In this document: in pieces, positions 16,166-17,086 of the stretch | How positions within the stretch are numbered: position 1 is the first letter of the stretch | How the letters are laid out: the number at the start of each line of letters is the position of its first letter | NCBI GenBank assembly: GCA_963844865.1 | Contig: CAWJPY010000008.1 | Location: 48,959-112,958 of the forward strand | Reading direction: 5' to 3' | DNA from: an uncultured Holophagae bacterium | Lineage (GTDB): Bacteria; Acidobacteriota; Thermoanaerobaculia; Thermoanaerobaculales; Sulfomarinibacteraceae | Length of the DNA stretch: 64,000 nucleotides | Notes under the pieces: model-generated | What the model saw: the letters and a program-made list of their open reading frames with translations, nothing else | Told to the model about the DNA's origin: nothing | Databases searched by the model: none | Position numbers and translations under genes: made by a program

Positions 16166-16204
16166 GGAGCCCTCTTTTCCCGCGCCTCCGTCCGTGTCCG
16201 AATC

Positions 16205-16276
16205 GGCGGCAGTGAGCGGCGGCAGTGAGCGGCGGCAGTGAGCGGCGGCAGTGAGCGGCGGCAGTGAGCGGCGGCA
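16205..16276 (+). repeat. Perfect tandem repeat, 13-mer GGCGGCAGTGAGC x5.5
   Basis: Units at 16205, 16218, 16231, 16244, 16257 and a partial unit at 16270. Confidence 0.95.
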
Positions 16277-16325
16277 TGGTCACTCCGGGTCGTTCGTCTG
16301 AGAACGTAGCCGGTGGCCGGCCCAT

Positions 16326-16371
16326 GTCAAGGGCAAGCCGGGCTCGGAGCCCGGTGCTTCGCACCCTTGAC
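16326..16371. repeat. Imperfect palindrome GTCAAGGG...CCCTTGAC
   Basis: Outer GTCAAGGG/CCCTTGAC and inner AAGC-CGGGCT/AGCCCG-GCTT arms. Confidence 0.75.
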
Positions 16372-16402
16372 CTGGGCCGCCCCCGGCTTGTGAACGGGGG
16401 GC

Positions 16403-16777
16403 ATGAACGACCCGGAGGTGACCATGCCCAACGCGATCCCCAGCACTGGTCTCACTGCTCATCACTTGGCGCTCGAAGCGGCCGGCGCTGCGATCAAGCT
16501 CGTCATGAGTTTGCCGGCTCCGTTGAAGCCGATCGGCGATCAGGTGATTCGTTCCGCGAGCTCGGTCCCGGCCAATCTCGCTGAAGGCCACGGACGGTCC
16601 GGCCGAGACCGGGTGCACCACTGGCGCATCGCCTATGCCTCGGCCAAAGAGGTGGACTCACACGTGCGGCTCCTCGCCGCGACCGGAGCCGTCCGTCGGT
16701 CAGCAGCGCAGCTCGTCATCGACGGCTTCGATAAGGTACGCGCCATGACGTGGCGGCTCCTCAACCCGAGGATCTGA
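16403..16777 (+). CDS. Four-helix-bundle protein (23S rRNA-IVP/bAvd-like family)
   Basis: DQVIRSASSVPANLAEGHGR and WRIAYASAKEV match the family core (DQ..RA..S...N.AEG); the start may be ATG 16424. Confidence 0.9.
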   Translation: MNDPEVTMPNAIPSTGLTAHHLALEAAGAAIKLVMSLPAPLKPIGDQVIRSASSVPANLAEGHGRSGRDRVHHWRIAYASAKEVDSHVRLLAATGAVRRSAAQLVIDGFDKVRAMTWRLLNPRI

Positions 16778-16805
16778 CCGTCGGGGCGCCATTCGCTCAA
16801 ACGGC

Positions 16806-16855
16806 CGTTCATGCCGCCCAGCCGGTCCTCATGCCCTGCGACGCCCGTTCATGCC
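16806..16855 (+). repeat. Three TCATGCC units at 20-nt period
   Basis: TCATGCC at 16809, 16829 and 16849; CGTTCATGCC is the exact reverse complement of 16400-16409. Confidence 0.75.
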
Positions 16856-16923
16856 CATTGCCACCATCTGGCTCTCCCCGTCTCCTGGCACCTTCTTCTC
16901 CCGGACGGGGGCTCTCCGGCTCC

Positions 16924-16992
16924 GCGCCTCTGCGCCTCTGCGTTCATTCCTCTCGGGTGGGCGGCGGCTTTGCGTCTTCGCGTCTTTGCGTT
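16924..16992 (-). repeat. 8-mer module AACGCAGAG/ACGCGAAG, locus 1
   Basis: Minus strand AACGCAAAGACGCGAAGACGCAAAG and AACGCAGAGGCGCAGAGGCGC; related to 53033-53060 and 63536-63595. Confidence 0.7.
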
Positions 16993-17086
16993 CTGTCTTC
17001 CTCCGGGGGCGGACGGCGGCTCCGGGTCGGCATCGACACCGAAATGCGGACGGGGCCGGCGTCGTTGCGGGAAGCGGAGGTGGAGC

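Follow-up and report, generated by a model that had tools for sequence, protein, structure and literature searches.

A dispersed cassette of tandem array, leader hairpin and four-helix-bundle gene, probably selfish, in an uncultured Holophagae bacterium

The window considered here is a stretch of 64,000 nucleotides from an uncultured Holophagae bacterium (assembly GCA_963844865.1, contig CAWJPY010000008.1; all positions are those of the window unless a contig is named), the genome of which (G000; 4.74 Mb in 32 contigs, ~70% GC) contains many copies of a small cassette. In the window, this cassette is a conserved unit that extends from 16204 to about 16780 and is composed of an array of 13-mers, a 156-nt leader hairpin and an open reading frame (ORF) of the PF05635/TIGR02436 family. 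We consider that the locus is probably an intact copy of a multi-copy, selfish and non-autonomous element, similar to the intervening sequences (IVSs) of 23S rRNA and equipped with an RNA structure that would lock translation. According to the sequence comparisons presented below, the best reading of the cassette is that of a free-standing relative of the ORF-bearing 23S rRNA IVSs.

A first-pass annotation of this DNA had listed the array, a shorter hairpin, the sequence GGCATGAACG over the first ATG, the ORF, a downstream CGTTCATGCC triplet and arrays of 8-mers, and had joined them in one packaged island. All of these features are present and the observation is confirmed, but they do not form one unit, and the interpretation is partly supported: a repeat-flanked, transposase-less cassette of the IVS/Avd family is indeed found, whereas the CGTTCATGCC triplet and the 8-mers lie outside it.

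The conserved unit and its leader hairpin

By BLAST, the homology between the window copy and the others extends from the beginning of the array (16202-16204) to the stop codon (16767-16783). On its left side, the unit opens with a perfect tandem array of CGGCGGCAGTGAG (16204..16276, + strand; 100% identical, Tandem Repeats Finder score 146), counted as 5.5 units at first pass and as 5.6 here, which continues without interruption into the leader hairpin, at its 5' arm. In nearly all copies a perfect array specific to the copy abuts the hairpin, with 2-26 units that consist of CGGCGGCAG followed by a variable 5 nt (GTGAG, GCGCT, GCGAT, GTGGA, GTGAT or GTGAA), or of hexamers. In a genome-wide ranking of tandem repeats, all of the top arrays are cassette arrays, and these are far beyond chance. 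A metagenome contig that is 99% identical, and conspecific, carries the cassette at the same place with the hairpin mismatch at 16372 repaired and with 2.6 array units versus 5.6 here, a count that is possibly an assembly collapse because this short-read contig ends inside the hairpin. In practice, arrays and hairpins of this kind break short-read assemblies, as the end of this contig illustrates. The array would grow and shrink through slippage at the base of the hairpin.

The 46-nt GTCAAGGG...CCCTTGAC hairpin described at first pass is present at 16326-16371 and is only the top of a hairpin of 156 nt that spans 16273-16428. In its basal stem, 16273-16295 is paired with 16405-16428 over 23 bp with one bulge (inverted repeats I4+I7). 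The 5' arm, GGCATGGTCACTCCGGGTCGTTC (16273..16295, + strand), is supported by inverted repeats, folds and covariation, and the 3' arm, GAACGACCCGGAGGTGACCATGCC (16405..16428, + strand), carries a Shine-Dalgarno sequence (SD) and the second in-frame ATG. The middle and apical part between them (16296..16404, + strand) comprises an invariant GTCAAGGG/CCCTTGAC helix (16326-16333 / 16364-16371, + strand) and an apical GCCGGGCUCGGAGCCCGGU hairpin, and GGCATGAACG covers the first ATG (16403) at 16400-16409. The SD, GGAGGTGA (16414-16421, + strand), was read directly from the sequence; the second ATG (16424) follows five bases after it and is probably the true start. Since the 3' arm holds both the SD and ATG 16424, the 5' arm is an anti-SD and anti-start sequence. 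The SD is kept in 20 of 23 copies of this genome and in 68 of 69 related copies, and the CAT complementary to the second ATG is invariant in the segment labelled A1.

Fold energies were between -78 and -127 kcal/mol in all 32 copies tested, and the window hairpin, at about -110 kcal/mol, persists when the complete 671-nt transcript is folded. For the study of covariation, we aligned 39 leaders from five genera. In this alignment 95.9% of the cells are paired, versus 29-45% when the partners are slid by 1-3 columns; 17 of the 41 pairs have changed on both sides, versus 5-8 in the slid controls, and none of 500 shuffles reached the observed pairing values. Helix 1, in which the SD and the start face the upstream arm, is 95.8% paired over 21 pairs with 7 pairs changed on both sides, and for helices 3 and 4 the paired share is 94.5-97%, with 10 such pairs. 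Array, hairpin and ORF are all retained in four other genera of the family, where the array units differ and the arms have changed in sequence; in the genome G008 the arms have changed yet are complementary (GGTTTCCTCC with GGAGGAAACC). In five genera the arm is an exact complement of the SD and AUG, and a hairpin with paired SD and start codon was found at 72 of 78 loci in other metagenome-assembled genomes (MAGs). On this comparative evidence, the conserved and covarying pairing is that inside the leader, between the anti-SD arm and the SD with the start codon, and we infer that the hairpin is a translational lock acting at the RNA level. A TTGACA in the 3' arm was also considered as a -35 box and was rejected, no conserved -10 partner being present in any genus.

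The palindrome could also act as DNA, as a cruciform or single-strand hairpin that serves as a recombination or replication site in the manner of attC or HUH hairpin ends, the burial of the SD then being incidental. That the stems are 96% Watson-Crick leaves room for such a role and counts against a purely RNA-level one; the array at the hairpin base is what replication stalling predicts, and the copies have spread without an encoded transposase. We nevertheless regard this explanation as improbable. The G-U pairs are biased towards the sense strand (110 versus 61 antisense) and folds of the sense strand are the more stable ones (p = 0.002, in a test that is not strict as the copies are related), with conserved G-U columns (71/150, 29/190 and 44/179) that become A-C mismatches on the other strand. 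The arm matches the SD and AUG throughout the five genera despite sequence changes such as those in G008, and no integron integrase or dedicated recombinase is evident among the ORFs of 13000-20500.

The encoded protein and the dispersal of the cassette

The gene (16403..16777, + strand; TGA at 16775-16777) encodes 124 aa from ATG 16403 or 117 aa from ATG 16424. Its product matches PF05635 with 51.9 bits (cut-off 33.8) and TIGR02436 with 54.9 bits (cut-off 24), and the AlphaFold (AF2) model of the monomer has four helices with a predicted local distance difference test score (pLDDT) of 92; the ORF is therefore a member of the PF05635/TIGR02436 four-helix-bundle (S23p) family. To our knowledge, PF05635 proteins are widespread, some have solved structures, and outside the Avd of diversity-generating retroelements (DGRs) they have no known function. 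The best Foldseek match is XCC0516 (2GSC; template modelling score (TM) 0.83-0.86, root-mean-square deviation 1.2-1.4 A; phmmer E = 4e-4), followed by BT_0352 (2RLD, TM 0.8) and by Avd (4DWL/8UB7, TM about 0.8).

This likeness to Avd, a four-helix-bundle monomer that assembles into a pentameric nucleic-acid-binding scaffold and is included in the same protein family (PMC10053308), could be taken to mean that the gene is the Avd of a DGR, or the remnant of one, served by a reverse transcriptase (RT) encoded elsewhere. Such an origin is extremely unlikely. The identity to Avd is about 10%, and the S23p branch (2GSC, 2RLD) is far nearer to the protein; no RT or transposase was found among the ORFs of 13000-20500 by ORF list and profile search, in agreement with the first-pass annotation, and neither a linked RT nor template and variable repeats accompany the gene. 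The sole RVT_1 matches of the genome are two identical ORFs far from any cassette, and dozens of cassette copies per genome, about 30 of them intact here, are unlike a DGR accessory gene. The cassette is not a DGR. The two RVT_1 ORFs (C6:424085-424786 and C13:304040-304741) carry a YADD motif and, at the C-terminus, a region that resembles a maturase; read by eye, they look like group II intron maturases, and their identity suggests a recently active intron.

The genome has 36 TIGR02436 matches, and BLAST retrieved 61 loci homologous to 16204-16777, 27 complete and 34 fragmentary; the fragments include 6 limited to the 5' half of the ORF, 12 limited to array or leader and 9 limited to 3' parts. 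Many of these paralogs share the array and leader as flanks, and syntenic orthologs devoid of repeat flanks were not found. The unit recurs hundreds of times in related MAGs labelled Thermoanaerobaculia or Holophagae, its copy number across the genera of the family varies from 0 to 65, and the close protein relatives all come from Acidobacteriota (MAGs labelled Candidatus Sulfomarinibacteraceae, Holophagae and Thermoanaerobaculia). An exact-protein look-up gave no identical protein elsewhere, and a query of phage and plasmid collections with the protein gave no match.

Three kinds of evidence bear on the dispersal of the unit. Firstly, pairs of copies share 94-96% identity over 650-900 bp, with sharp boundaries beyond which their flanks are unrelated. 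Secondly, a derivative with a truncated ORF is present at five loci (88-95% identical), its closest intact relative being the window copy. The five truncated copies have a common deletion junction, GAAGGTTCGCCA.AGGGGGTGCCAGG (...GAAGG|TTCGCCA.AGGGGGTGCCAGG), which fuses the ANLAEG codons to a palindromic element located after the stop codon in intact relatives; the spread of this defective derivative implies that an intact ORF is dispensable in cis. Thirdly, site occupancy differs within the genus of G006, a sister genus: the first site measures 1322 nt in G006 versus 38-277 nt in six other species, and at the second site only G006 has the cassette, the other species having different inserts. 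The cassette copies of G006 have GGCTCATCCGGAATT...CCGGAAGAGCC inverted ends and 8-bp GAACGTTC duplications. From the unrelated flanks, the truncated derivative and the differing occupancy, the unit appears to spread.

The palindromic element of the junction, GGTGCCAGGCACC...GGTGCCWGGCACC followed by a GGTGGCAACCNCGGGGAACGC terminus, occurs as an exact motif in 24 copies genome-wide. A copy in the window, at about 14130-14400, deviates from this motif and was detected by BLAST only (92% over 113 nt), and the composite tail of the same type is fused to the five truncated cassettes at C12:189510, C12:123866, C13:130907, C19:77640 and C5:296515. At two loci of G006 (L059 and L070, at G006:C6:835k and G006:C4:131k), the cassette lies inside (A/T)AACGTTC arrays with the GAACGTTC duplication.

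Many copies also have a downstream array of the reverse-complement motif. Upstream of the cassettes, motifs of the GGCAGYG type were counted 231 times in forward and 7 times in reverse orientation, and downstream 11 and 35 times, for a background of 0.24 per 260 nt; the array motifs are common to several genera. Arms built of arrays on both sides were found in about 10 of 28 copies, and in the window copy the downstream inverse array is missing (0 motifs). A copy-specific pairing of the upstream and downstream arms was rejected, as their complementarity is no better within a copy (12.4) than between different copies (12.8) genome-wide.

The proteins are under purifying selection. For 28 intact paralogs, the median ratio of nonsynonymous to synonymous substitutions (dN/dS) is 0.17 at a dS of about 0.9, all 375 paralog pairs are below 0.5, and pairs at dS 0.19-0.28 have ratios of 0.12-0.14; in the youngest trio, the changes are too few for a judgement.

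Several observations weigh against a mobile and selfish cassette. In this genome, terminal inverted repeats are absent apart from the arrays and from chance matches, as are copies of the G006-type end GGCTCTTCCGGAATT, target-site duplications at the junctions of near-identical pairs and an ISL3 transposase; the end sequences of the cassettes are tandem arrays or neighbouring repeat elements, and copy ends can be ragged, the shared extents differing within the trio C14/C13/C23. An empty site, which the first-pass annotation had proposed to look for in relatives and which is seen in the genus of G006, was not found for the window copy, the sole conspecific contig being occupied, and the locus is not syntenic in the nearest genus that possesses the upstream gene. 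The array length of that contig may, as said, be an artefact. A scan of 15900-17200 for sigma-70 promoters and intrinsic terminators detected nothing. Finally, most paralogs are old (dS about 0.9), and purifying selection would fit a gene family useful to the host equally well.

The copies might thus be an ordinary host multigene family, for example of small RNA- or DNA-binding regulators, that was expanded by duplication together with a conserved autoregulatory leader; the arrays would then be slippage by-products beside a stable hairpin, and the differences between species would be due to differential loss. Such a family would account for selection on all 28 intact copies, fairly recent pairs included, for the age of most of them, for the absence of transposase, inverted ends and target duplications, and for arrays that always abut the hairpin base with a copy-specific unit. 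We consider it unlikely, as it does not agree with identity that ends sharply between unrelated flanks, a truncated non-coding derivative at five loci, 34 fragments among 61 loci, a site that is empty in six congeners of the one species in which it is occupied, and a sister genus with inverted ends and 8-bp duplications, nor with array motifs that cross genera and have the strand asymmetry given above (231/7 upstream, 11/35 downstream).

Three candidates for the machinery or traces of this spread were examined and not retained. The ISL3 transposase is no general mobiliser, being absent from the genomes G000, G003, G006 and G012; of the other two genomes compared, G010 has 13 matches and G008 has 2 short fragments. 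The sequence CATCCGCGTCCG, considered as a decayed left end, has 14 copies genome-wide of which only 3 are near cassettes, and is therefore part of another common repeat type. Pairs of forward and reverse arrays without an ORF, as footprints of lost cassettes, were represented by a single case.

Relation to known elements and proposed mechanism

The IVS of the Coxiella burnetii 23S rRNA has a 28-bp terminal stem and is excised by RNase III; it contains an S23p ORF with GACAGAT heptamers, variable among strains, immediately before the ATG, its SD is removed through processing, and it is viewed as a selfish element (PMC4990558). The cassette has in common with this IVS, and with its relatives in Leptospira, Brucella and Xanthomonas, a PF05635/S23p protein and long complementary stems. 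It further resembles the Coxiella element by strain-variable tandem repeats before the ORF (here 5.6 versus 2.6 units, with possible assembly collapse) and by an SD region involved in the stem or its processing, and the parallel of array, stem and SD is close. By contrast with the 23S rRNA IVSs, the cassette is located outside rRNA genes, not in helix 25 or 45 (the only rRNA operon found, on C1, has no four-helix-bundle match and a normal 16S-23S spacing), and is dispersed at about 60 intergenic loci; its conserved stem is wholly upstream of the ORF and does not enclose it, and its ORFs are under purifying selection, with no reductive evolution.

Mobile insertion cassettes of the MIC231 type and other non-autonomous derivatives of insertion sequences (IS) are also small, multi-copy and transposase-less, carry a passenger gene and vary in presence among relatives, as seen in the genus of G006, the cassettes of which have inverted ends and 8-bp duplications as well; unlike them, the copies of the genome studied here have no detectable inverted ends, target duplications or ISL3 transposase. 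As for the leader, IS10 and IS50 inhibit translation of their transposase by fold-back, and the leaders of lambda N and adhE are activated by RNase III. As in IS10 and IS50, the upstream sequence of the cassette pairs with the SD and start codon, so that transcripts are predicted to be silent; unlike in these, the stem is far larger (156 nt, about -110 kcal/mol), guards a four-helix-bundle gene and comes with no internal promoter in the scan.

For the IVS-like cassette that we favour, the following mechanism may be proposed. In transcripts that contain the 5' arm, for example by read-through from the upstream gene, the SD and AUG would be buried in the 23-bp stem, and translation would then require either a transcript start inside the hairpin or processing of the stem, for which RNase III is the obvious candidate, as in the rRNA IVSs. 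Where the downstream inverse array is present, it could form with the upstream array an outer stem like that of an IVS. The ring-forming four-helix-bundle protein probably binds the structured nucleic acid of its own element, candidate partners being the leader RNA, the array as RNA or DNA, and the GUCAAGGG/CCCUUGAC helix.

A wider reading, which we put forward tentatively and hold to be rather doubtful, is that array, hairpin, ORF and inverse array are one conserved selfish module, of which the rRNA IVSs and the IS-ended cassettes of Acidobacteriota would be different lodgings. The ring protein would then not be cargo; it would bind the repeat or hairpin nucleic acid of its own module and promote copying or retention through enzymes of the host, which, if this is true, would be RNase III and those of recombination or repair in place of a dedicated transposase. 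Full-text searches found no description of the free-standing architecture in the literature, and as far as we know the origin of the ORF-bearing rRNA IVSs has been open since the 1990s. A free-standing, multi-copy and selected form with a covarying lock offers a tractable system for the target of the protein, the unlocking and a spread without a dedicated enzyme.

Flanking repeats and neighbouring genes

Downstream of the conserved unit, the window copy has a copy-specific 3' tail (16796..16860, + strand), a triplet with a period of 20 nt that is complementary to the region of the first ATG. It contains CGTTCATGCC twice (16806-15 and 16846-55, + strand) and a partial TCATGCCC (16829-36, + strand). 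The first-pass annotation had proposed that the start region GGCATGAACG pairs with this triplet, so that the ends of the mRNA form a stem enclosing the ORF, and that this stem undergoes processing or is recognised by the protein. The two exact 10-mers, the partial one and CTCCGGGTCG at 17020-29 are indeed complementary to the start region, and the complementarity score of the 3' flank, 11, is equalled or exceeded by only 1.4% of random genomic 300-mers. This pairing is nevertheless not a property of the family, and we hold the model to be very improbable: the 24 other scored copies reach 5-9 and lack the CGTTCATGCC 10-mer in their 3' flanks, the only paralogous tail (C6:277617-277821) has degenerate versions (ATTCATGCC / CTCACTCC / GCTCATGCC), in the full-length fold the leader hairpin (-110 kcal/mol) retains the start region, and the flank consists in part of an unrelated repeat family.

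That family is represented by a dispersed intergenic repeat of ACGCAGAG / ACGCGAAG / ACGCAAAG octamers (16907..17030, - strand; more than 20 BLAST loci), with 8-mer arrays at 16912-42 and 16964-91 in the window. The first-pass annotation had counted these modules as part of the cassette; they are a separate repeat family outside it, since only 3 of its 54 arrays genome-wide are within 1 kb of a four-helix-bundle copy. A second octamer copy of the window, at 63537-63600, is flanked by CCCACCCACCC runs (63480-63620). Short tandem repeats of several kinds are unusually abundant in the intergenic DNA of the genome; (YGTCCG)n, for example, occurs 66 times.

The cassette is placed between the gene of a 534-aa protein and that of an aldo-keto reductase; the neighbourhood further includes a peptidase C1-like gene and a beta-helix protein. 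The 534-aa gene (14561-16165) has no Pfam or NCBIfam match, and its ortholog is known from one other genus of the family only, 49% identical and in a different gene neighbourhood. Overlapping its TAG stop and directly after it (16158-16178), GAGGG-TAGGGAG-CCCTC followed by TTTT looks, by eye, like a weak terminator below the threshold of the terminator scan. Rfam, searched at a permissive threshold over 13500-17500, gave two sub-threshold chance matches only, and PADLOC gave no match. Read-through of the downstream aldo-keto reductase gene (17087-18077) requires 3 frame changes (near 17558, 17790 and 17900), which makes it either a pseudogene or a site of indel errors of the assembly; if the latter, some of the apparently frameshifted cassette copies may be artefacts too. 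Farther downstream, a 260-nt tandem repeat at 24584-25122 (2.1 copies, 94% identity) is the repeat with the largest period in the window.

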